In this document: piece after piece, positions 1-39,255 of the stretch
Layout: each line of letters opens with the position of its first letter
Position numbering within the stretch: the stretch's first letter is position 1
Source of the DNA: Escherichia phage vB_EcoM_SHAK7854
Direction: 5' to 3' (one strand)
Sequence record: OR594182
DNA: 39,734 nucleotides
The notes under the pieces: model-generated
The model's database searches: none
What the model saw: only the letters and a program-made list of their open reading frames with translations
Told to the model about the DNA's origin: nothing
Position numbers and translations under genes: made by a program

Positions 1-1731
1 ATGACTGCACGTATGAAGTCAGACTTCGTGTTCTTCCTGTTCGTCCTGTGGAAAGCTCTGTCGCTCCCAGTCCCGACTCGCTGTCAGATTGACATGGCGA
101 AGAAACTATCGGCTGGGGACAACAGGCGCTTCATCCTACAGGCGTTCCGTGGTATAGGGAAGTCCTTCATTACGTGTGCCTTCGTTGTCTGGAAGCTATG
201 GAACAACCCAGACTTGAAGTTCATGATTGTGTCGGCCTCAAAGGAGCGAGCCGATGCTAACTCCATCTTCATCAAGCGAATCATCGACCTCATGCCTCAG
301 CTTCAGGAACTCAAACCTAAGCAGGGACAGCGAGATGCGGTTATTAGCTTCGACGTGGGACCTGCCAAGCCAGACCACTCACCTTCGGTTAAGTCCGTTG
401 GTATCACTGGTCAGTTGACTGGTAGTCGTGCTGACATCCTGATTGCCGATGACGTGGAGGTTCCGAACAACTCAGCGACTCAGGCTGCACGAGACCGTCT
501 ATCAGAGCTTGTGAAAGAGTTCGACGCTATCCTGAAGCCGGGAGGTACGATCATCTATCTGGGTACTCCTCAGAACGAGATGACCCTGTACCGTGAGCTG
601 GAAGGTCGTGGGTACACCACTACTATCTGGCCCGCTCGTTATCCACGCGACAGGAAGGACTGGCAGTCTTACGGCGACCGTCTGGCTCCTATGCTTCAGG
701 CAGAGCTGGAAGAGGACCCTGAGTCCTTCTACTGGCGTCCGACTGATGAAGTACGCTTCGATGATACGGACCTGAAGGAACGTGAGCTGTCCTACGGTAA
801 AGCTGGCTTCGCTCTACAGTTCATGCTTAACCCGAACCTGAGTGATGCCGAGAAGTACCCTCTTAAGCTCCGTGACCTTATCGTAGCCGACTTGGACCCA
901 GCGTCCAGCCCAATGGTCTACCAATGGTTGCCGAACCCTCAGAACAAGCGTGAGGACGTTCCTAACGTTGGACTCATGGGTGACTCGTACCACACGTATC
1001 AGACTGTAGGTTCTGCCTTCAGCTCATACACCCAGAAGATTCTGGTCATTGACCCTAGTGGTCGTGGTAAGGATGAAACTGGATATGCGGTACTGTACCA
1101 GCTCAACGGCTACATCTTCGCTATGGAAGTTGGTGGCATGCGTGGTGGTTATGAAGACTCTACGCTGGAAGCCTTGGCTAAGATTGGTCGTAAGTGGAGG
1201 GTAAACGAATACGTCATTGAGGGTAACTTCGGTGATGGTATGTACCTTGAGCTATTCAAGCCTGTATCGGCCCGTATCCATCCTGCGGCTGTAACTGAAG
1301 TGAAGAGTAAGGGTCAGAAAGAACTACGCATCTGTGACGTTCTGGAGCCTATCATGGGGTCTCACAGACTTATCGTTAACGCTGCTGCTATCGTCCAAGA
1401 CTACCAGACAGCCTCTGACAAGGATGGTGTTCGTAACCCTATCTACTCTCTATTCTATCAGATGACACGTATCTCTCGTGAGCGTGGAGCCTTGGCACAC
1501 GATGACCGACTTGATGCGCTGGCTATCGGTGTACAGTTCTTCGTTGAGTCGATGGCTAAGGATGCCAACAAAGGCGAACGTGAAGTCACTGAGGAATGGC
1601 TGGAGGAACAGATGGAGAACCCACGGAAAGGCTTCGAGTCCATCCACACTGAGTTCTGGGACAATGGGGTCCGGGTAACTCACGATACGGACGACGAGCT
1701 TGGACTAGGGTCATACGTTACGTTCCACTAG
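1..1731 (+). CDS. DNA packaging terminase large subunit (T7 gp19 family); 5-prime partial at window start, N-terminus supplied by 39702..39734 if the molecule is circular
   Basis: 576-aa ORF, collinear with T7 gp19 from about residue 12 ([55 protein letters not shown]). Confidence 0.93.
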
Positions 1732-1825
1732 CTGAATGAATAACTATAGGTGAAAGCTGCATGAATAAGCAGTTAGTAACCTATAGTTACTACCAGTCTA
1801 ACATACTGTTTTACAAGGAGTTTGG

Positions 1826-1848
1826 ACTTAACTATCACTATAGGGAAG
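1826..1848 (+). promoter_or_regulatory. phage RNAP promoter (phiOR-like, downstream of gene 19)
   Basis: ACTTAACTATCACTATAGGGAAG; core CACTATAGGGA identical to T7 class III -8..+3. Confidence 0.7.
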
Positions 1849-2028
1849 ACCCCCGGTTACTTATAGTATTACTGTAGTGAATATACATATGCAGACTTTA
1901 TGCAAGGCCTTAGGAGGCAGACTCCGAGTTCTTACCTAAGTCTTGCACCGATGGAAGGAGGGTGATATTAATCATAATCCCTCCAATACAGATAGTCACC
2001 GACCATAGATACAGGAGGTATGTAGCAT

Positions 2029-2187
2029 ATGGCAAAGACCAAAGCTGTACTTAAAGCTCTGGCGACCAATCGAGCTACATACAGGTTTCTTGCTGCTGTT
2101 CTACTTGCTGCTGGCGCTACTGCTGGAAGTCAGTGGGTCGGGTGGGTCGAGACTCTCGTATGTTCTCTGGTCTCTCAGTGTAATTAA
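2029..2187 (+). CDS. hypothetical small hydrophobic protein (52 aa) in the gene 19.5 position
   Basis: ATG with AGGAGG 10 nt upstream; below the ORF-track size cutoff; no homology recognised. Confidence 0.3.
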   Translation: MAKTKAVLKALATNRATYRFLAAVLLAAGATAGSQWVGWVETLVCSLVSQCN

Positions 2188-2344
2188 CGCCGTAATGGTA
2201 ACAATCAACGAAAGCAAGACCTAAGGTCAGTTCATAGCTGACGCTACTCTACTGACCTTAGCTACTGTAGTCAAGGACTTTAGGTAACACCTTAATAGAA
2301 GCTCACTTAGGGTCATCCTACTTATTGGTCTATCCTAGTGTCGC

Positions 2345-2390
2345 CTGACCTACGGTCCTTGACCTACAGTGGCTGTGGCCTACAGTAGTG
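2345..2390. repeat. short ACCTAC(A/G)GT direct repeats on the left flank of the terminal repeat
   Basis: three copies of ACCTACAGT-like motif; analogous to the CCTAAAG arrays next to the T7 terminal repeat. Confidence 0.55.
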
Positions 2391-2423
2391 ACGATGAGTT
2401 TTGGACCAAAAGTTTGAGACCAC

Positions 2424-2606
2424 ATCTCACACTTCAAGAACCTCAAGTCTCCCCATAGGCCTCTTTCAGTCCAGACCAAAGGCCCTACCCCAGTCTATCA
2501 TAAGGTTGGACCGATGGTCAAGACTTCAGGTCAACGATAGGCTGAGGCTATGGCTTAGGGAAGGACGATAGGTTGGGACTATTGGTCTGCCTCTGAGTCC
2601 CTATCT
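2424..2606. repeat. direct terminal repeat, copy 1 (183 bp; right genome end)
   Basis: exact tandem duplicate of 2607..2789; begins ATCTCACAC and ends GTCCCTATCT, resembling the T7 terminal repeat termini. Confidence 0.8.
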
Positions 2607-2789
2607 ATCTCACACTTCAAGAACCTCAAGTCTCCCCATAGGCCTCTTTCAGTCCAGACCAAAGGCCCTACCCCAGTCTATCATAAGGTTGGACCGATGG
2701 TCAAGACTTCAGGTCAACGATAGGCTGAGGCTATGGCTTAGGGAAGGACGATAGGTTGGGACTATTGGTCTGCCTCTGAGTCCCTATCT
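2607..2789. repeat. direct terminal repeat, copy 2 (183 bp; left genome end)
   Basis: identical to 2424..2606 by direct reading. Confidence 0.8.
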
Positions 2790-2814
2790 GTATAGTGATA
2801 TAGTATAACATTAC

Positions 2815-2940
2815 GTCCTACACCTACAGTCTAACTAACCTACAGTCATTGACTCCTGCTGTACCTACAGTCACCGACCATCGGTAAAGCCATTACCTAC
2901 AGTCAAAGACCTACAGTCAAAGACCTACAGTCTAACGACA
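2815..2940. repeat. array of about six ACCTACAGTC short direct repeats on the right flank of the terminal repeat
   Basis: CCTACAGTC recurs at about 2823, 2838, 2863, 2895, 2910, 2925. Confidence 0.6.
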
Positions 2941-3043
2941 CAAAGCTATAGACTTAAGGTCTAATACATGTTAGTCAAAGACTATATCCTCTTAGTCACT
3001 ATGGGCCGACGATAGCTTAATCAATATTATTTAAGATTACCTA

Positions 3044-3072
3044 TTGACTACAGGTCCAGACTATGGCTTAAT
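3044..3072 (+). promoter_or_regulatory. candidate host sigma70 early promoter (T7 A1-like position)
   Basis: TTGACT, 17-nt spacer, CTTAAT; surrounding sequence resembles the T7 A1 region. Confidence 0.4.
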
Positions 3073-3184
3073 AGCTTCCGTCAACACGACACGGCAACAA
3101 CCGGATAGTGAAGACGCCGGGTCATCCCGGTTAAGTAGACAGCCTGATAAGTCATACGAACAACAGGCAGATGACAGAAAGTAG

Positions 3185-3214
3185 TTGACAAGATGTACCG
3201 ACTTAAAGTAGTAT
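3185..3214 (+). promoter_or_regulatory. candidate host sigma70 early promoter (T7 A2/A3-like)
   Basis: TTGACA, 18-nt spacer, TAGTAT, followed by GTACCACAT as at T7 A3. Confidence 0.5.
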
Positions 3215-3341
3215 GTACCACATCAACACGAAACAACGGTGACGACCAACACTGAAACGGTCTACCTGAAGTCCTCTGACTGAAGGGAATGCTCTTTAAC
3301 AATCTGGATAAACTCTTAATGTGCGCCGACAGTGATTAACT

Positions 3342-3390
3342 ACAGGGTCTTTGAGTCTACATCTGAAGGCCCTGACTGATAGCCACTAAC
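3342..3390 (+). repeat. early intergenic hairpin element type A, copy 1 (candidate RNase III site)
   Basis: GTGATTAACTACAGG...CCTGACTGATAG element with internal inverted repeat; precedes ORF 3398. Confidence 0.5.
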
Positions 3391-3397
3391 TTAACGG

Positions 3398-3652
3398 ATG
3401 GACACTATGAAACACTTAAGCACAATCACTAATCGCAATGAAGTATTCGTGAACACTAAAGGTTATGCGTGGATTCAGCTTAAAGAGATGAGAGGAGCGC
3501 GTCACCGTGTGGTAGTTCGCAAGGTATCAAGCAAGCCGTTCAGCAACTACAGCGTAGATACTATGCGTATAGACAACGAGACTTACCTGATAGACTCGCA
3601 GATAACCGTGCGTCCTACAGCGGGCATCTCAGCTCCTTATTTCGCTAACTGA
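3398..3652 (+). CDS. hypothetical early protein (84 aa)
   Basis: first ORF of the early region, downstream of the candidate host promoters; no homology recognised. Confidence 0.55.
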   Translation: MDTMKHLSTITNRNEVFVNTKGYAWIQLKEMRGARHRVVVRKVSSKPFSNYSVDTMRIDNETYLIDSQITVRPTAGISAPYFAN

Positions 3653-3654
3653 GG

Positions 3655-3705
3655 GTGATTAACTACAGGTCGTTAGACTGATAGCGGCCTGACTGATAGT
3701 CACTA
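3655..3705 (+). repeat. early intergenic hairpin element type A, copy 2
   Basis: GTGATTAACTACAGGTCGTTAGACTGATAGCGGCCTGACTGATAGTCACTA; CAGGTC/GGCCTG stem. Confidence 0.55.
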
Positions 3706-3725
3706 GCAACCTAAGAGGATTCATT

Positions 3726-4004
3726 ATGAGACTGAACAAAGCTACAGCAGAAGCCTTTCGCAAGGAGCTTGAATCAAGATTATTGTGTGGAGTGGCGGAA
3801 GGAGCCGCTCGATATAAAGAGAATGGTCTAACGTTCAAGCGCTTTATGTGGGATTGCTATCACGGAGTGGGCCATAAAAAGTCGCAGGAAATAATCACCA
3901 GCAACAATGCGGAAGTGCAAGTGATAGGAGGATACATGGCTAACGTGAAGGATTCACACATAGAGACAATGCTTAAGAATGCACTTAAAGATGTAGCCTA
4001 CTAG
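3726..4004 (+). CDS. hypothetical early protein (92 aa)
   Basis: ORF with AGAGGA RBS 7 nt upstream. Confidence 0.6.
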   Translation: MRLNKATAEAFRKELESRLLCGVAEGAARYKENGLTFKRFMWDCYHGVGHKKSQEIITSNNAEVQVIGGYMANVKDSHIETMLKNALKDVAY

Positions 4005-4054
4005 TGATTAACTACAGGTCGTTAGACTGATAGCGGCCTGACTGATAGTCACTA
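4004..4054 (+). repeat. early intergenic hairpin element type A, copy 3
   Basis: identical to copy 2 over about 50 bp. Confidence 0.55.
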
Positions 4055-4084
4055 ACACATAATTAACTTTGAGAGGATATAACT

Positions 4085-4588
4085 ATGGAACGTAATGCTA
4101 ACGCATACTATGAGCTGCTGGCTGCAACCGTTGAGGCATTTATCGAGCGTATTCAGTACGACCACCTGACTCAAGATGATGACTACAGCGATGCGCTGCA
4201 TGAGGTCGTAGACGGTCAGGTTCCACACTATTACCACGAGATTTTTACGGTGATGGCTGCTGATGGTATAGACCACGAGTTCGAAGACTCTGGGCTGATG
4301 CCTGAAACCAAGGACGTAACGCGTATCCTACAAGCTCGCATCTATGAGGCGCTTTATAACGATGTGTCTAATAGCTTGGATGTAGTCTGGTTTGAGGATG
4401 AAGAGGCAGAAGAAGAGGATGAATATTGGGTAGTTGACGCTAAAACAGGCGCAATAATTGTGCAAGCTGTAGCTCTTGAGGTCGCTACTGCATGTGCCAA
4501 TGTTAACTATGCGGCAGGTCGCCACCTGAAGGTGGAAGACATCAATGATAACGTAGTGTTCGACCCTGCGGCTGAGGACTGCGAGTGA
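4085..4588 (+). CDS. ocr: Ocr-like DNA-mimic anti-restriction protein (T7 gp0.3 homolog) with about 50-aa C-terminal extension
   Basis: [43 protein letters not shown] matches T7 Ocr; acidic tail present; 167 aa versus 117 aa in T7. Confidence 0.85.
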
Positions 4589-4733
4589 TGGTAACTTATG
4601 GCCTCTGCCAGCACCACGTCACTAACGCCCGGCTTATGGTCAAGACCGGGCAGTTAGACCACGATTGGGCTATGCGTCTCTTGAAAGTGGTCTACAGGAG
4701 ACGCAAGCGTATACACGACAGTTTACACGCTAA

Positions 4734-4782
4734 GTGACAGACTACAGGTCATCAATGCTGGTGGCCTGACTGATAGTCATTA
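4734..4782 (+). repeat. early intergenic hairpin element type A, copy 4
   Basis: GTGACAGACTACAGGTCATCAATGCTGGTGGCCTGACTGATAGTCATTAAC. Confidence 0.5.
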
Positions 4783-4800
4783 ACAACTGAGAGGGAAGAT

Positions 4801-5028
4801 ATGAACACAATCACTGGTGCCATAACCAAAGGTTTTCGAGCAATTTTCGGTGAAACGCAAGAAGTATGCACCAATCATAAATTCGTACTTTCTTGCGTAG
4901 CAGGTGACGAGTTTGACGGGTTCGATAAACTGGTGGTTTGCGACCATTGCGGACAAGAGGCTATCCAACACTCAAACGGTAAATTTGAATTAATAGACGA
5001 TAGCCTTACAGAAGGAGACGGCGAGTAA
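4801..5028 (+). CDS. hypothetical early protein (75 aa) with four cysteines and acidic C-terminus
   Basis: GAGAGGGAAG RBS; C-x8-C...C-x2-C spacing suggests a small zinc-binding fold. Confidence 0.55.
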   Translation: MNTITGAITKGFRAIFGETQEVCTNHKFVLSCVAGDEFDGFDKLVVCDHCGQEAIQHSNGKFELIDDSLTEGDGE

Positions 5029-5092
5029 CCTAAATAAGCAGGAGAGAACCAAATCATAGCTTGACCATAACACTGACGTGATGGTACTGAGT

Positions 5093-5135
5093 GATAGACG
5101 AGAGGTCATCGACTGATAGGTGGCCTCAAAGATTA
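5093..5135 (+). repeat. early intergenic hairpin element type A, divergent copy 5
   Basis: GAGGTCATCGACTGATAGGTGGCCTC retains the AGGTC/GGCCT stem. Confidence 0.4.
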
Positions 5136-5160
5136 CCACTTACATTGATAGGAGTTAACT

Positions 5161-5265
5161 ATGAGCACTGCAATCATCTGGACTATCTCAGGCTTCGTAG
5201 CGTGGGGAATGTTTACTCTAGTCTGCAAACTACCGGTCCTTACTCAACTGTTATGGGGCTTATGA
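5161..5265 (+). CDS. hypothetical small hydrophobic peptide (34 aa)
   Basis: GGAG RBS; MSTAIIWTISGFVAWGMFTLVCKLPVLTQLLWGL; stop overlaps next ATG (ATGA). Confidence 0.3.
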   Translation: MSTAIIWTISGFVAWGMFTLVCKLPVLTQLLWGL

Positions 5266-5465
5266 CTATGAGTATCGCACTATTGATAGCCATAGGCTAT
5301 GGACTTATCGCCTACGTGCTGGTGAGAGACATCAACAAGGCACGTAAAGTCTATAAATTCAACTATGTACGTATGGTCCGCTGGACTGTACGTCAACCTA
5401 ACGGACGATTCCTGCGCAATTTAGCGAACGTCTGGGATATAGCAACTCTTGGGAGCAAACTGTAA
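5262..5465 (+). CDS. hypothetical early membrane protein (68 aa)
   Basis: internal Met of ORF-track 5091..5465 chosen as start; N-terminal hydrophobic helix then basic tail. Confidence 0.4.
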   Translation: MTMSIALLIAIGYGLIAYVLVRDINKARKVYKFNYVRMVRWTVRQPNGRFLRNLANVWDIATLGSKL

Positions 5466-5791
5466 TGAACAAGTCATACGGGATTAATCTGGTACACTCT
5501 ATGGACGCAGAAATGAACATGTTAAGCCTACTGGCTACCGGGTATCGTCACGGAACGTCAAGTCACACCGCACGTCAACAGCAGGAGCGGGACCGTGTAC
5601 TACAGGCGCGACTCCGGGCAGAGGGCCATAAGTCCGAACTGATGTGTCTGGCGTATGGCGGACGACCGATCACTGACGATGGTAAACTTCTGGTATCAGG
5701 CTGGAAGGCGATAGACCAACGGTCAACCATCAAGCACACGACTCATGGTGACTTCAGTCATCTTCACGCTAACCCACTGATATGCAAGTGA
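5465..5791 (+). CDS. hypothetical early protein (108 aa)
   Basis: TAATG coupling to upstream ORF; occupies the T7 0.7 position but is far too short to be the kinase. Confidence 0.5.
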   Translation: MNKSYGINLVHSMDAEMNMLSLLATGYRHGTSSHTARQQQERDRVLQARLRAEGHKSELMCLAYGGRPITDDGKLLVSGWKAIDQRSTIKHTTHGDFSHLHANPLICK

Positions 5792-5796
5792 TTCTG

Positions 5797-5819
5797 ACTT
5801 AACTATCACTATAGGACTC
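5797..5819 (+). promoter_or_regulatory. phage RNAP promoter immediately upstream of the RNAP gene
   Basis: CTTAACTATCACTATAGGACTCA; +1 GGA. Confidence 0.6.
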
Positions 5820-5888
5820 AAGGTCTAAGACTCCAAGTGAAAGACCAAAGAGACTTTAAGTGAAAGACTAATAACAAGGACTTTAAGT

Positions 5889-8570
5889 ATGAGCGTCATC
5901 TCTATTGACAAACACGACTTCTCTGATGTGTCGAACGCCATTGAGCCGTTTAACCTGCTGGCTGACCACTACGGGCAAGACCTTGCAGTCAAACAGCTTC
6001 AGCTTGAGCATGAGGCCTACACTGAAGGTGAGCGACGTTTCATCAAGAACCTTGAGCGTCAGACCGAGCGAGGGGAACTGGCAGACAATCAGGTCGCCAA
6101 GCCTTTGATGCAGACTCTGGTTCCTAAGATTGCGCAAGCCGTCAAGGAGTGGCACGAAGGTCCAGACGGGAAGCTGTCAACCTCACGTCCGAGCGTAGCG
6201 TTCACCATGTTAAGCACTGAAGAGAAGGCCGTCAAGGACCGCTCTCTTCGCATCTCCTGCGAGTCTGCTGCGGTTATCATACTGAAGGTCATCCTCTCCA
6301 AGCTGGTCAAGCCTGAAGGTATACCGATTACACCGATGGCCTCCGCGATAGGTCGCACACTTGAGGATGAAATCCGATTCGGTCGCATTCGTGACAAGGA
6401 GAAGGAGCACTTCAAGAAGGCGATAGCTGATAACCTGAACAAGAGAGCCGGGGCATCATACAAGAAAGCCTACATGCAAGCGGTCGAGACATCCATGCTG
6501 GAGCAAGGCCAACTAGAAGATGCGTGGGGAACTTGGAGTCCGACCGAGGCTGTCCACGTTGGAATCAAGATGCTGGAGATTGTCATACAGTCAACACAAC
6601 TGGTCGAGCTTAAGCGTTACGGTGCTGGCAATGCAGCGGCTGACGTTGAGATGGTCCACCTGTCAGACTTCTGGGTCAAGAAGATGGCACAACGAGGATT
6701 CAGCCTTGCGGGTATCGCCCCAGTCTACCAGCCTTGCGTCGTTCCACCTAAGCCGTGGACTGGTGTCGTAGGTGGTGGGTACTGGGCCAAAGGTCGCAGA
6801 CCGTTACCATTGATTCGCTTAGGGTCTAAGTCTGCGGTAGCACGTTATGAAGACGTATACATGCCTGAAGTCTATGACGCTGTGAATATCATCCAGAATA
6901 CACCTTGGAAAGTGAACAAGAAGGTATTGGACGTGGTGAACAAGGTCGAGAAGCTGAACAACACGCCTATTGATGACATCCCTCAGATGGAACCGCTGAA
7001 GCCTGAGGACTATGCGGGTGAGACTGAAGAAGAACTCAAGGCATGGAAGAAGGCTGCTGCTGGTATCTATCGCCGCGAGAAGGCCAGACAGTCACGAAGA
7101 TTGTCACTGAGCTTTATCGTCAACCAAGCGAACAAGTTCTCTCAGTTCAAGGCCATCTGGTTCCCGTATAACATGGACTGGCGCGGTCGCGTCTACGCTG
7201 TGCCGATGTTCAACCCTCAGGGTAACGACATGCAAAAGGGTCTTCTGACTCTGGCAGTCGGTAAGCCTATTGGTGCTGATGGTTTCAAATGGCTGAAGGT
7301 CCACGGTGCAAACTGCGCGGGTGTCGATAAAGTCACCTTCGAGGAGCGTATCAAGTGGGTGGAAGATAACCACGACAACATCATGGCTGCTGCCAAGGCA
7401 CCGATGGATAGCATTGAGTGGTGGGGCAAGTTAGACTCTCCGTTCTGCTTCCTAGCGTTCTGCTTCGAGTATGCTGGCGTAATGCACCACGGCTTGTCTT
7501 ACTCCTGCTCGCTGCCGATAGCGTTCGATGGGTCCTGCTCTGGGATTCAGCACTTCAGCGCTATGCTTCGCGACCACATCGGTGGACATGCAGTAAACCT
7601 GACGCCATCCGGTAAGGTCCAAGACATCTACCGCATCGTGTCTGACCGCATTGAGGAGGAGCTTAAAGTCCTACTGGTTAACGGTACGGACAACGAGATG
7701 GTAACTCACGAGGACAAGAAAACTGGTGAGATTACCGAGCGTCTCAAGCTGGGGACACGAGAGCTTGCCCGTCAGTGGCTGACCTACGGTATGTCACGAA
7801 AGGTCACTAAGCGTTCGGTCATGACTCTGGCCTACGGGTCGAAAGAGTACGGCTTCGCAGACCAAGTTTACGAGGACATCGTGATGCCAGCGATTGACTC
7901 AGGGTCTGGCGCTATGTTCACTGAACCAAGCCAAGCATCTCGCTTCATGGCTAAGATGATTTGGGAAGCTGTGAGTGTGACCGTAGTTGCTGCGGTTGAC
8001 GCGATGAAATGGCTTCAGGGTGCTGCCAAGCTGCTTGCTGCTGAAGTGAAGGACAAGAAGACTGGAGAAATCCTGAAGCCTTGTCTTCCGGTACACTGGG
8101 TCACACCTGATGGTTTCCCTGTCTGGCAGGAATACCGCAAGAAGGACACCACTCGTCTGAACCTGATGTTCTTAGGGTCATTCAACCTTCAGCCTACCGT
8201 CAACAAAGGCACGAAGAAAGAGCTGGACAAGCACAAGCAGGAGTCAGGCATTAGCCCGAACTTCGTCCACTCACAAGATGGTAGCCACCTCCGCAAGACT
8301 GTAGTCCACACTCACCGAAAGTATGGCGTGATGTCATTCGCAGTGATTCACGATAGCTTCGGGACCATCCCGGCTGACGCTGAGTATCTGTTCCGTGGAG
8401 TCCGTGAGACGATGGTAGAGACTTACCGCGATAACGATGTGCTGCTTGACTTCTACGAGCAGTTTGAATACCAGCTTCATGAAAGTCAGCGCGACAAGTT
8501 GCCTGAGCTTCCGAAGAAAGGTAAACTAAATATCGAAGACATCTTGTCTTCAGACTTTGCATTCGCTTAA
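5889..8570 (+). CDS. single-subunit DNA-directed RNA polymerase (T7 gp1 family)
   Basis: 893 aa, collinear with T7 RNAP (PFNLLADHYG, WFPYNMDWRGRVYAV, SPFCFLAFCFEYAG, AFDGSCSGIQHFSAMLRD, HDSFGTIPADA, C-terminal FAFA). Confidence 0.97.
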   Translation: MSVISIDKHDFSDVSNAIEPFNLLADHYGQDLAVKQLQLEHEAYTEGERRFIKNLERQTERGELADNQVAKPLMQTLVPKIAQAVKEWHEGPDGKLSTSRPSVAFTMLSTEEKAVKDRSLRISCESAAVIILKVILSKLVKPEGIPITPMASAIGRTLEDEIRFGRIRDKEKEHFKKAIADNLNKRAGASYKKAYMQAVETSMLEQGQLEDAWGTWSPTEAVHVGIKMLEIVIQSTQLVELKRYGAGNAAADVEMVHLSDFWVKKMAQRGFSLAGIAPVYQPCVVPPKPWTGVVGGGYWAKGRRPLPLIRLGSKSAVARYEDVYMPEVYDAVNIIQNTPWKVNKKVLDVVNKVEKLNNTPIDDIPQMEPLKPEDYAGETEEELKAWKKAAAGIYRREKARQSRRLSLSFIVNQANKFSQFKAIWFPYNMDWRGRVYAVPMFNPQGNDMQKGLLTLAVGKPIGADGFKWLKVHGANCAGVDKVTFEERIKWVEDNHDNIMAAAKAPMDSIEWWGKLDSPFCFLAFCFEYAGVMHHGLSYSCSLPIAFDGSCSGIQHFSAMLRDHIGGHAVNLTPSGKVQDIYRIVSDRIEEELKVLLVNGTDNEMVTHEDKKTGEITERLKLGTRELARQWLTYGMSRKVTKRSVMTLAYGSKEYGFADQVYEDIVMPAIDSGSGAMFTEPSQASRFMAKMIWEAVSVTVVAAVDAMKWLQGAAKLLAAEVKDKKTGEILKPCLPVHWVTPDGFPVWQEYRKKDTTRLNLMFLGSFNLQPTVNKGTKKELDKHKQESGISPNFVHSQDGSHLRKTVVHTHRKYGVMSFAVIHDSFGTIPADAEYLFRGVRETMVETYRDNDVLLDFYEQFEYQLHESQRDKLPELPKKGKLNIEDILSSDFAFA

Positions 8571-8585
8571 CAGGAGGAGAAGTAT

Positions 8586-8816
8586 ATGTCAATGAAACTT
8601 GTAGCACACAACAGGACATACAACGATGGGTCGGGACGTTGCCATGTAGAGCTGACTTATAGGGATTTAGTCATTCTCCGAGACAGATTACAAGAGGGTG
8701 TGACTGGGTGGATTCAACCTAACGAGTACAACCTTATAGCTTCGATTGATGAAGTGCTTAACGCGTGGATGGAAGACGAGCGCACTCAGTATCCATCATT
8801 CCCTATGATTAAATAA
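8586..8816 (+). CDS. hypothetical protein (76 aa), no T7 counterpart between gene 1 and 1.1
   Basis: CAGGAGGAG RBS. Confidence 0.55.
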   Translation: MSMKLVAHNRTYNDGSGRCHVELTYRDLVILRDRLQEGVTGWIQPNEYNLIASIDEVLNAWMEDERTQYPSFPMIK

Positions 8817-8826
8817 GGAGAGAGTT

Positions 8827-9042
8827 ATGAAATTTGCACACAAGCAGTCTGGCGTTAAGGGCGGGACTCAAATCGTGACCGTAACAGAACACAACGGCAA
8901 GGGTCTGGTGAAGACCACGGTCATCCCTACAGAGATGTCAAAGCAGCTTAACGTCCCATTCAAGACACTCGTCTATCTTGTGGAATCCAGCCACGAGAAA
9001 TACCTGAAAGACGCAGTGTCCAAGCTGGAGCAGGCCAAATGA
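8827..9042 (+). CDS. hypothetical protein (71 aa), no T7 counterpart
   Basis: AAGGAGAG RBS. Confidence 0.55.
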   Translation: MKFAHKQSGVKGGTQIVTVTEHNGKGLVKTTVIPTEMSKQLNVPFKTLVYLVESSHEKYLKDAVSKLEQAK

Positions 9043-9116
9043 CAGACATACAGTTACTGGCCCTGTGGCTGGGAGCACTCGCAGTATTCACTTTAATCCA
9101 ACGCAGAAGAGGTTAA
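9039..9116 (+). CDS. hypothetical hydrophobic peptide (25 aa)
   Basis: ATGA overlap with upstream stop; MTDIQLLALWLGALAVFTLIQRRRG. Confidence 0.25.
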   Translation: MTDIQLLALWLGALAVFTLIQRRRG

Positions 9117-9117
9117 C

Positions 9118-9140
9118 CCTAAACTATCACTATAGGATTA
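9118..9140 (+). promoter_or_regulatory. phage RNAP promoter (phi1.1-like)
   Basis: CCTAAACTATCACTATAGGATTA. Confidence 0.7.
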
Positions 9141-9182
9141 GACTCAAGGTCATGACTCAAAGTCGTGGCCTTCATGATTAAC
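9138..9182 (+). repeat. hairpin element type B (candidate RNase III site, R1.1-like)
   Basis: TTAGACTCAAGGTCATGACT...AGTCGTGGCCTT imperfect 12-bp stem. Confidence 0.5.
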
Positions 9183-9213
9183 CCTAAATAAACACTACTG
9201 GAGATTTAACCGT

Positions 9214-9393
9214 ATGTATCAGAACACTATCAACTTCGAGCGCATCCGTGAACGTCAGCAGACTGAAGGTTACATCCCTAAGGGCCGCAAGCTGAACAAG
9301 ACTAAACGTGGAGGAGGTATCAAAGGTGCTTTCCGTAACGCTGAAGGTAAAGACTCTATGGTTAACCAAGAGAAATACTTCATAGGAGCGTAA
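9214..9393 (+). CDS. gp1.1-like small basic protein (59 aa)
   Basis: KGRKLNKTKR shared with T7 gp1.1; below ORF-track cutoff. Confidence 0.6.
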   Translation: MYQNTINFERIRERQQTEGYIPKGRKLNKTKRGGGIKGAFRNAEGKDSMVNQEKYFIGA

Positions 9394-9396
9394 GCC

Positions 9397-9648
9397 ATGA
9401 GTAAACGTTGGTTATTCGACGCATCCACGAGCCAGTGGTCAGCGTTAGGCCGGACTCACCGCGAGATGAGTGAGGCAGGACTTGATGTCCTAATGGATTA
9501 CTCGCCGTGCCACGGAAAAACTCTGGTCAGAGTAATTGAAGCAGATGGTGGGAGGCTTCTGGTCTCCAGAGAATTTACCGAATATGAAATATTTAGCTGT
9601 GAGCAATGGTGCTTACAACAATTGAACGATTATAGGAGCTGGAAATAA
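9397..9648 (+). CDS. gp1.2-like protein (T7 gp1.2 is a dGTPase inhibitor)
   Basis: position and size (83 aa) match T7 gp1.2; C-terminal DYRSWK similar to T7 KDWK end. Confidence 0.5.
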   Translation: MSKRWLFDASTSQWSALGRTHREMSEAGLDVLMDYSPCHGKTLVRVIEADGGRLLVSREFTEYEIFSCEQWCLQQLNDYRSWK

Positions 9649-16140: not shown

Positions 16141-16305
16141 TTGCTAAGAAAACTTAAAGCTCGCTACCATCGGTTCATGTACAAATGGTGGAGCGACGAA
16201 GCAACCTGCCTGTCGAACATTCTGGGAGACCAGCGGTTCAACTCTGAGGCATGGAAGAAAGCTAACCGGAAGTTCATGTATCACTTCTTGCGTACAGACT
16301 TCTAG
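16141..16305 (+). CDS. hypothetical basic protein (54 aa; gene 4.3-4.5 region), TTG start
   Basis: AAGGAGGAG RBS; the ORF-track ATG start at 16108 lies inside gp4. Confidence 0.35.
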   Translation: MLRKLKARYHRFMYKWWSDEATCLSNILGDQRFNSEAWKKANRKFMYHFLRTDF

Positions 16306-16357
16306 GTCTAGACTCAAGGTCATTCACATAGAGTGGCCTTTATGATTAGACTAAACG
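16306..16357 (+). repeat. hairpin element type B (candidate RNase III site)
   Basis: GTCTAGACTCAAGGTCAT...GTGGCCTTTATGATTAGAC. Confidence 0.5.
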
Positions 16358-16368
16358 GAGGATTAACC

Positions 16369-38894: not shown

Positions 38895-39154
38895 CGCAGA
38901 TGGACTTAGAGAAGTTCCTCTTGATGCTTGATACTGAGCGTGCTCGACTTATGCTGCAAGACTTGCGGGATGACACTAAGCGTTCACCTCAGCTCTACAA
39001 CGCCATTGAGAAGCTGCTTGCTCGTCACAACTTTGTGTTAAGCAAGGTGTCTGTTGACGAGAAGACGCTGGCTGATATGGAGGCCCTGAACGCAGAGTAC
39101 GATAAGGTGCTTTCAGCGACTGAGGATAATGACACCGGGTATGGCGTTCAATAA
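38891..39154 (+). CDS. terminase small subunit (T7 gp18 family)
   Basis: LMLDTERA, RSPQLYNAIEKLLARH matches T7 gp18. Confidence 0.85.
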   Translation: MTQMDLEKFLLMLDTERARLMLQDLRDDTKRSPQLYNAIEKLLARHNFVLSKVSVDEKTLADMEALNAEYDKVLSATEDNDTGYGVQ

Positions 39155-39155
39155 G

Positions 39156-39205
39156 TGTTAGACTCAAGGTCATTACTGTATGTAGTGGCCTTTATGGTTA
39201 ACACT
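39156..39205 (+). repeat. hairpin element type B (candidate RNase III site, R18.5-like)
   Basis: GTGTTAGACTCAAGGTCATTACTGTATGTAGTGGCCTTTATGGTTAACAC. Confidence 0.5.
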
Positions 39206-39255
39206 AACTAGTGGAGGAGACTCTACGTGCAATCTGATAAACCGGGAGGGCAACT

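Follow-up and report, generated by a model that had tools for sequence, protein, structure and literature searches.

The early region of Escherichia phage vB_EcoM_SHAK7854, a probable RNase III-processed operon of the T7 type with repeated hairpins between its accessory genes

The early transcripts of phages T7 and T3 reportedly carry processing sites for ribonuclease III (RNase III), known as R0.3, R0.5, R1, R1.1 and R1.3 from work attributed to Dunn and Studier in 1983. The T7 early precursor is about 7000 nucleotides (nt) long and holds five RNase III signals, and single-strand cleavage by the enzyme leaves stabilizing 3′ hairpins (PMC3867540). In Escherichia phage vB_EcoM_SHAK7854 (sequence record OR594182; the window is the whole stretch analysed, 39,734 nt), a row of small open reading frames (ORFs) interspersed with copies of a repeated hairpin lies between host-type promoters and the RNA polymerase gene (gene 1, 5889-8570). 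Region 3044-5791 very probably represents a Kayfunavirus class I (early) operon, of T7 type and processed by RNase III. The repeated element can be assigned with high confidence to the classical processing signal of the T7 group, an already-known feature, and the genes between the hairpins are accessory genes that are already catalogued, their functions mostly undescribed.

Positions 3000-6000 matched 410 phage records by megablast, the closest belonging to Kayfunavirus (K1F-like Studiervirinae) and including LM33_P1 and vB_EcoP-101118UKE1 (96-98% nt identity, 90% query cover). The Kayfunavirus records of K1F, EcoDS1, LM33_P1 and 22664UKE3-2 share genes and gene order with the window at 92-100% identity, and in the last of these, vB_EcoP-22664UKE3-2, the order is identical to that of the window's early region, including the succession of gp0.2, the 92-amino-acid (aa) gene and ocr. 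Dozens of deposited Kayfunavirus genomes carry these early genes, and the region is not unusual.

Repeated hairpins of the T7-group RNase III type

A sequence-only reading of this DNA had noticed a repeated element with an AGGTC/GGCCT inverted repeat, two copies of it near-identical, and both observations hold. In the window there are 8 occurrences of AGGTC-N(6-24)-GGCCT, where 1.5 would be expected, and every one is on the + strand; a repeat search returned the near-identical pair at 3655-3708 and 4004-4057 (53/54 positions) along with looser copies at 3331, 4733 and 5087. A covariance model was trained on 13 sequences, namely the eight window sites and T7 R0.3, R0.5, R1, R1.1 and R1.3; it finds exactly 8 sites in the 39.7-kilobase (kb) window, all on the + strand with expectation values (E) of 1e-9 to 1e-13, and has zero matches in an unrelated siphovirus locus. 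The sites are as follows, with scores from this model.

3329-3392, + strand: hairpin E1, an R0.3-type variant with a GGGTC/GGCCC upper stem (48.3 bits, E 4e-9)
3652-3712, + strand: hairpin E2, the left copy of the near-identical pair (63.6 bits)
4001-4061, + strand: hairpin E3, the site at the R0.3 position before ocr (66.3 bits, E 2e-13)
4731-4789, + strand: hairpin E4, which resembles T7 R1 (61.2 bits)
5088-5148, + strand: hairpin E5, R0.5-type (58.6 bits), kept in K1F, EcoDS1, Pipis and EcoP-R1
9132-9190, 16302-16361 and 39152-39213, + strand: three later RNase III-type hairpins

The predicted fold has an upper stem of about 9-10 base pairs (bp) starting with AGGUC/GGCCU, an asymmetric internal loop and a lower stem of the form GUGAU../..AUCAC. 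Each early hairpin abuts the stop codon upstream of it, and a Shine-Dalgarno (SD) sequence and an ATG come next downstream. The supposition that a copy precedes every gene had to be given up, as five early copies face eight ORFs and none stands before the 50-, 65- or 108-aa ORFs or before gene 1. In the RNAalifold consensus of the 13 sequences, nine of the 15 pairs show compensatory changes, and the AGGUC/GGCCU upper stem contains a conserved U-G wobble that is unpairable on the opposite strand.

The eight window sites align directly with T7 R0.3, R0.5, R1, R1.1 and R1.3, the AGG..G.CCT columns being invariant. T3, which lay outside the training set, serves as an independent check, in which the model picks out the three features annotated as 'RNase III recognition site' in the T3 RefSeq record (R0.3, R0.5 and R1, E 1e-7 to 2e-12) and nothing else in that locus. 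Homology to the T7 and T3 sites, together with this recovery, thus argues that the hairpins are a known feature; the earlier guess of processing at the hairpins appears, by the same homology, to have been right in kind, and the element is not a new one. Among the records compared, that of T3 alone has RNase III sites annotated, and no annotated Kayfunavirus record marks any. By alignment with the T7 cut, which falls between ..GGCCUUUAU and GAUU.., RNase III is predicted to cleave after 3377 (E1), 3694 (E2), 4043 (E3), 4771 (E4) and 5130 (E5).

The window sites share with those of T7 and T3 the stem architecture, the intercistronic position, the transcribed strand and adjoining downstream ribosome-binding sites, and the extra hairpins after gene 1 and in the late region are likewise T7-like. 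They differ in number, since five sites lie ahead of gene 1 in the window versus three in both T7 and T3, and in what stands directly before gene 1: R1 and a host promoter in T7 and T3, a phage promoter in the window. They differ further in the nine-nucleotide sequence GACUGAUAG, which occupies the apical and/or 3′ internal loop of the early window hairpins and is unseen in T7/T3 sites. At the DNA level this 9-mer, GACTGATAG, occurs 10 times in the window against 0.5 expected, seven of the copies lying inside the five early hairpins (3374, 3676, 3691, 4025, 4040, 4768 and 5111), where they occupy the apical loop, the 3′ internal loop or the two together; the 9-mer includes in-frame TGA-TAG stops and is absent from the three later window sites as well as from the T7/T3 sites. 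The later hairpins are nearer to the T7 sites in sequence (CTCAAGGTCA..TGGCCTTTATGATTA) than the early ones are, and that at 9132-9190 follows just after a phage promoter, as T7 R1.1 follows phi1.1A. A supposed T7 'R0.7' site at 1994 failed to fold, was missed by the model and was dropped.

Several points weigh against the RNase III assignment or limit it. An Rfam scan of 1700-9500 at E<=1 returned no family, so the assignment rests on the purpose-built model and on the T7/T3 annotation. The covariance model finds no R1-type site before gene 1 in the window, unlike the arrangement in T7 and T3. Pairing over 48 sites taken from 13 sources favours the assignment (97.8% of cells compared with 29-50% when the partner is slid, and 108 doubly changed cells versus at most 27), but the alignment used was itself fitted to the model and mixes paralogous and orthologous copies. 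Finally, we infer cleavage, the cut positions and early timing from homology to the T7 and T3 systems.

The early region was also said to lie downstream of host-type promoters, and these are homologous to annotated promoters of EcoDS1. Both fall in a 92.6% identical block that covers the annotated host RNA polymerase promoters of EcoDS1 (469-505 and 609-647).

3044-3080, + strand: first of two host sigma-70 early promoters, TTGACT..CTTAAT
3185-3214, + strand: second host sigma-70 early promoter, TTGACA-18-TAGTAT, agreeing with the consensus at 10/12 positions and homologous to EcoDS1 609-647
5800-5815, + strand: phage RNA polymerase promoter, TAACTATCACTATAGG, directly upstream of gene 1 and forming the right edge of the island

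With its variants, TAACTATCACTATAGG is present in 11 copies in the window (5800, 1829, 9121, 10799, 11968, 14359, 20023, 22862, 23842, 28630 and 35916), and the EcoDS1 record annotates the counterpart of 5800-5815 as a 'phi' promoter. Its place directly before gene 1 implies that the polymerase would be able to transcribe its own gene. The interval between the host promoters is spanned by a 46-aa frame (3044-3184, phrog_30192) that is called 'gp0.1' in the LM33_P1 and K1F records and is probably not a gene. A terminator scan found no + strand site with a U-tract, its two matches both lying on the - strand inside gene 1, and the idea that the hairpins are terminators was discarded for want of any terminator-like site on the + strand.

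Homology with T7 and T3 suggests a course of expression in which host RNA polymerase would initiate at the two sigma-70 promoters (near 3044 and 3185) and produce a single long transcript. In five hairpins of this transcript, each of about 60 nt, RNase III would then nick the internal loop on its 3′ side and thereby release five messages. The first would encode gp0.2, the second the product of the 92-aa gene, the third Ocr and the gp0.4-like protein, the fourth the 75-aa protein, and the fifth the 34-aa ORF, the gp0.6-like protein and the 108-aa protein, possibly extending into gene 1. Every message would carry a protective hairpin at its 3′ end and begin just upstream of a ribosome-binding site. 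Genes that have no hairpin of their own would rely on translation coupled to that of the preceding gene, a coupling indicated by the 50-, 65- and 108-aa ORFs, each of which overlaps or abuts the preceding stop. The remaining small proteins would be accessory and host-directed.

Genes between the hairpins

The seven small ORFs originally listed are all present on the + strand; a count of six or seven nevertheless missed an eighth, of 49/50 aa, at 4585/4588-4737. The two additional genes upstream of ocr are confirmed, as is the absence of a gp0.7 kinase: a tblastn search with T7 gp0.7 against the whole window gave a single 39-aa match at E 0.26.

3398-3652, + strand: gp0.2 homologue, 84 aa (phrog_10124, E 1e-38; 'gp0.2 protein' in K1F, AM084414)
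3726-4004, + strand: 92-aa accessory gene (phrog_9817, E 7e-27)
4085-4588, + strand: Ocr (gp0.3), DNA-mimic anti-restriction protein, 167 aa (PF08684, PDB 1s7z)
4585/4588-4737, + strand: gp0.4-like protein, 49/50 aa ('gp0.35' in EcoDS1; annotated in relatives)
4801-5028, + strand: acidic 75-aa protein (phrog_32657)
5161-5265, + strand: hydrophobic 34-aa ORF, a leader or small membrane peptide, with SD TAGGAG and ATG directly after E5
5268-5465 (alternative starts 5253 and 5259), + strand: T3 gp0.6 homologue, 65-70 aa, with an N-terminal transmembrane helix
5465-5791, + strand: 108-aa protein ('gp0.38' family of EcoDS1, phrog_7066)

All but the 34-aa ORF fall in existing PHROG families, a functional label being attached to the Ocr family only, and it remains true that most of the small early genes have no known function. 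The identity of Ocr is secure (PF08684 at E 3e-30, 104.9 bits against a cutoff of 25; PDB 1s7z at E 1e-25). The homologue is 62% identical to T7 Ocr over 78 aa and acidic, with 40 Asp and Glu among 167 residues, and by homology it would block type I restriction. Its C-terminal extension of about 50 residues (~118-167) is present in K1F (169 aa) and missing from T7 Ocr (117 aa) and EcoDS1 gp0.3 (110 aa); the Pfam match extends only to residue 95 and that to the PHROG family to 142, and the extension includes a hydrophobic stretch of 19 residues.

Ocr is not, as had been thought, the sole recognizable product, as the 50-aa ORF is T7 gp0.4-like, the 65-aa ORF T3 gp0.6-like and the 84-aa ORF the gp0.2 of K1F. 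The first of these, which probably inhibits FtsZ, is a homologue of the FtsZ inhibitor gp0.4 of T7: BLASTP gives 37% identity over 41 aa (E 1e-3), reciprocal PHROG searches match both proteins to phrog_5058, 7202 and 25044, and the start of the ORF overlaps the ocr stop just as in T7. Position and PHROGs are thus shared while the sequences are divergent. Inhibition of FtsZ by T7 gp0.4 was reportedly found by Kiro and colleagues in 2013, the activity being demonstrated for T7 only. The 65-aa ORF is 40% identical to T3 gp0.6 (E 1e-9; phrog_2385 at E 3e-31), a divergent relative whose function is undescribed in T3; its Kyte-Doolittle value reaches 2.35 over residues 1-19, and BLASTP found no similarity to T7 gp0.6A. 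The 34-aa ORF, for which no PHROG match was obtained, is found in LM33_P1, 101118UKE1 and EcoP-R1, has a Kyte-Doolittle maximum of 1.82 and is the least certain gene of the set.

Four proteins are left as orphans. For gp0.2, whose family comprises 41 clusters, the likely start is 3407 (giving 81 aa, as in most homologues) in preference to 3398. The 92-aa family (31 clusters) has invariant RFxWD and DSHIET motifs; its profile, run against 1.84 billion representative proteins, retrieved 25 clusters, all of small stand-alone proteins, and no informative fusion. The 75-aa protein has four cysteines, invariant across four aligned sequences. The 108-aa family numbers 144 clusters, nearly all on contigs of about 40 kb, and combines a strongly conserved 84-aa core with a modular N-terminus (5465-5540 here), members being 83-86, 108 or 130-139 aa long, the longest with a 31-aa insert. 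Because the N-terminus is modular, the functional start of the 108-aa protein in this phage is uncertain.

With respect to the missing kinase, the 65- and 108-aa ORFs were considered as remnants of the gp0.7 shut-off domain and rejected, given that their BLASTP matches to gp0.7 residues 242-293 are weak (E 0.003 and 0.33) and that neither has a PHROG in common with gp0.7. T7 gp0.7 kinase stimulates RNase III, whereas the window phage is without gp0.7; the Ser/Thr/Tyr fraction of the early proteins, 0.148 versus 0.121 in T7, proved uninformative.

As to the layout of the window, it begins inside the large terminase gene and contains a perfect 183-bp tandem duplication (2424-2606 and 2607-2789, 100% identical), which is the pair of direct terminal repeats of the linear genome joined head to tail. 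The tandem arrangement of the repeats shows the window to be a circularly permuted assembly; the true left end lies near 2607, and the left-end early region follows the repeats.

Gene gain, loss and transfer at the hairpins

Hairpins and ORF families were mapped in 12 early regions, and hairpin number tracks the number of hairpin-plus-gene cassettes. LM33_P1 and 101118UKE1, the nearest overall relatives, differ from the window in having no 92-aa cassette, and K1F, Pipis and EcoP-R1 in having no 75-aa cassette. The orders are as follows (H, hairpin; genes by name or length in aa).

Window: H-gp0.2-H-92-H-ocr/0.4-H-75-H-34/0.6/108
LM33_P1: as the window, minus H-92
K1F, Pipis and EcoP-R1: minus H-75
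EcoDS1: H-ocr/0.35-H-../0.6/0.38 only
pO2: the 75-aa slot holds an unrelated 123-aa gene

In alignments, the 92-aa gene and one hairpin (E2) together make up an insertion of exactly 349 bp that is missing from LM33_P1 and 101118UKE1; K1F, Pipis and EcoP-R1, with nothing in the 75-aa slot, have the junction at the 5′ edge of the hairpin. Yersinia phage AP10 has its 92-aa homologue in a different slot, after 0.4, flanked by two RNase III hairpins. In the deposited vB_YenP_AP10 record this gene is annotated as a 51-aa 'ORF3' from 1471; the full frame at 1342-1626 encodes 94 aa and matches phrog_9817 at E 9e-38, which indicates that the deposited start is probably wrong. Hafnia phage yong1 has lost gp0.2 and carries a chimeric, partly deleted E1/E2 hairpin before its 92-aa gene, and in 22664UKE3-2 an E1-type hairpin precedes the 75-aa gene. 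By comparison with these variable genes, the 108-aa and gp0.6-like genes are present in 11/11 Kayfunavirus early regions.

The boundaries of gain, loss and replacement coincide with the hairpins, and the operon thus behaves as a string of hairpin-plus-gene cassettes. A limited set of literature was searched and contained no description of a link between hairpins and insertion/deletion junctions in T7-like phages. Two considerations count against reading much into the pattern: breakpoints are in part bound to coincide with hairpins, because the hairpins fill nearly all of the intergenic space and viable insertions or deletions must end there, and in Aba_01KA the 75-aa gene, placed between gp0.6 and the 108-aa gene, has no hairpin of its own.

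An analogy exists with the PeSLs (promoter-early stem-loops) of T4-type phages, mobile regulatory cassettes in which, as in the window, a conserved intergenic motif flanks small, mostly undescribed early genes and marks the junctions of insertions, deletions and replacements (PMC2839356, PMC4122927). A PeSL combines a promoter with a terminator-like stem-loop, whereas the element in the window is a promoterless RNA-processing hairpin in a polycistronic transcript. Four of the five early hairpins have no sigma-70-like hexamer pair, the other being followed by a weak 9/12 match at 3399, after E1 and in the start of gp0.2, and none has a U-tract. There is no sequence relationship between the two elements, so the likeness is one of behaviour and not of membership.

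Some of the variable genes also occur in unrelated phages. Homologues of the 75-aa protein were found by tblastn in 56 records, including siphoviruses of 44-45 kb at 90-93% aa identity. The similarity with Kagunavirus covers the 75-aa gene, its SD and 27 nt downstream (87% nt identity over 275 nt; window 4781-5054 versus locus 2480-2754 of vB_EcoS_XY1) and breaks off precisely where the siphovirus gp59 begins, at its start codon. In Kagunavirus the homologue heads a sigma-70 operon beside a DicA-like repressor. The downstream part of the shared sequence contains what appears to be a relic:

5039-5054, + strand: relic Shine-Dalgarno region CAGGAGAGAACCAAAT, non-coding here, which in Kagunavirus precedes the gene after the 75-aa homologue

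These similarities suggest that the 75-aa gene was captured from a siphovirus-like context or is shared with Kagunavirus. Homologues of gp0.2 (window 3407-3649) occur in the 150-kb myovirus Phapecoctavirus nepoznato (locus 1501-1746, 70% identity), among small hypothetical genes, and in the N4-like Gamaleyavirus SP5M (locus 1501-1734, ~48% identity), roughly 3 kb from the left genome end. The occurrence of gp0.2 in Kayfunavirus, Phapecoctavirus and Gamaleyavirus means that one small orphan gene is spread over three E. coli phage families that are unrelated to one another. Kayfunavirus, Kagunavirus and Gamaleyavirus all infect wild E. coli in a glycan-dependent manner and have tailspikes in common as well (PMC11990801).

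Counter-defence, recombination and significance of the early region

A counter-defence role for the orphan early genes, for which the sequence-only reading had nominated them, is plausible but unsupported. In its fullest form this explanation holds that the island is a dedicated anti-defence module, in which gp0.2 and the 92-, 75- and 108-aa proteins inhibit host immunity and compensate for the missing T7 kinase, and as such it can be entertained only tentatively. It draws on the position of these small early genes beside Ocr, on the absence here of the T7 kinase, a broad anti-defence factor (PMC13645617), and on their patchy occurrence among near relatives. The gp0.2 homologues sit in early or accessory arrays of the N4-like Gamaleyavirus and the 150-kb Phapecoctavirus, the 75-aa gene is common to Kagunavirus, and all of these phage groups infect glycan-coated wild E. 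coli (PMC11990801). The patchiness of the 84- and 75-aa genes and their transfer across families strengthen the argument, if indirectly.

Named relatives exist for ocr, the gp0.4-like gene, the gp0.6-like gene and gp0.2. The 84-aa (gp0.2), 92-, 75- and 108-aa proteins had no PDB match and, searched as single sequences and as alignments, no Pfam or NCBIfam match, the profile noise including a sub-threshold DUF5680 match of the 92-aa family (E 0.08). One distant family member, noted with the 92-aa profile searches, matches S-adenosylmethionine (S-AdoMet) lyase at E 8.5e-4 and may be a chimeric ORF. Against a counter-defence role it must be counted that the four proteins show no sequence or fold similarity to any characterized anti-defence protein, and that fold searches returned nothing above noise, from AlphaFold models that are poor (predicted local distance difference test, pLDDT, 59 for the AF2 model of the 92-aa protein, and 67). 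The 200 genes in the accessory-gene screen of Silas et al. likewise include none that matches them closely: no motif of 5 or 9 residues from any of the ORFs was present there, a comparison that catches close homologues only. The sole newly assignable gene, moreover, is the homologue of a cell-division inhibitor and so points to host takeover rather than to anti-defence, and the conservation of the 108-aa and gp0.6-like genes in all 11 early regions fits general takeover better than an arms race.

It is much less probable that the hairpins serve chiefly as DNA elements, namely sites of recombination or insertion comparable to attC or to the PeSLs of T4, with RNA processing incidental. The insertion, deletion and replacement junctions do fall exactly at hairpins, E2 and E3, which flank the 92-aa gene, are 98% identical while E1, E4 and E5 are clearly divergent in stem and loop, and yong1 and 22664UKE3-2 have chimeric hairpins. 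The homology, however, is to T7/T3 RNase III substrates that were mapped biochemically, and the U-G wobble and the compensatory changes matter in RNA only. All copies stand on the transcribed strand, the three middle and late ones are not beside variable genes, and no recombinase is associated. The most economical account of the junctions is a side-effect in which short homology is used by the phage's general recombination. That several of the small ORFs are chance frames between regulatory hairpins is very improbable, for although the 34-aa ORF has no PHROG and gives way to different short frames in relatives and the 46-aa frame at 3044-3184 is doubtful, all other ORFs have an SD, PHROG matches at E 1e-25 to 1e-54 and tens to hundreds of homologues conserved down to 48-60% aa identity, with invariant motifs such as RFxWD and DSHIET in the 92-aa family.

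Building on the RNase III-processed early operon, a more speculative proposal, in our view rather doubtful as a whole, is that the K1F-like hairpin doubles as a universal adaptor and processing signal, that recombination between hairpins shuffles and captures accessory genes, and that at least one of gp0.2 and the 92-, 75- and 108-aa proteins is a new counter-defence or barrier-removal factor replacing the T7 kinase on wild glycan-coated E. coli. Because each early cistron carries the same hairpin of about 60 nt, general recombination could plug in, delete or move genes, or capture them from unrelated phages in the same infected cell; examples would be the 92-aa gene, which stands in one slot in Kayfunavirus and in another in Apdecimavirus, and the 75-aa gene, from Kagunavirus siphoviruses. 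Every newcomer gene would automatically be expressed as its own stable early message. What is possibly new here is this cassette model, with the hairpin as adaptor, and the set of four mobile orphan early proteins, and nothing else.

For the most part, then, the present work is routine annotation of a T7-group early operon, and its chief use is to prevent the hairpins from being taken for a new element. It also supplies exact predicted RNase III cut sites for a genus of interest in phage therapy (K1F, LM33_P1), and it draws attention to four conserved small early proteins that are mobile between phage families sharing wild E. coli hosts and that have no detectable fold relatives, making them reasonable targets for counter-defence and host-takeover screens in a lineage that has no kinase. 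If the cassette pattern is true genus-wide, it would explain how early accessory genes have diversified in T7-like phages, and it would offer a natural 'landing pad' for engineering early-expressed payloads.

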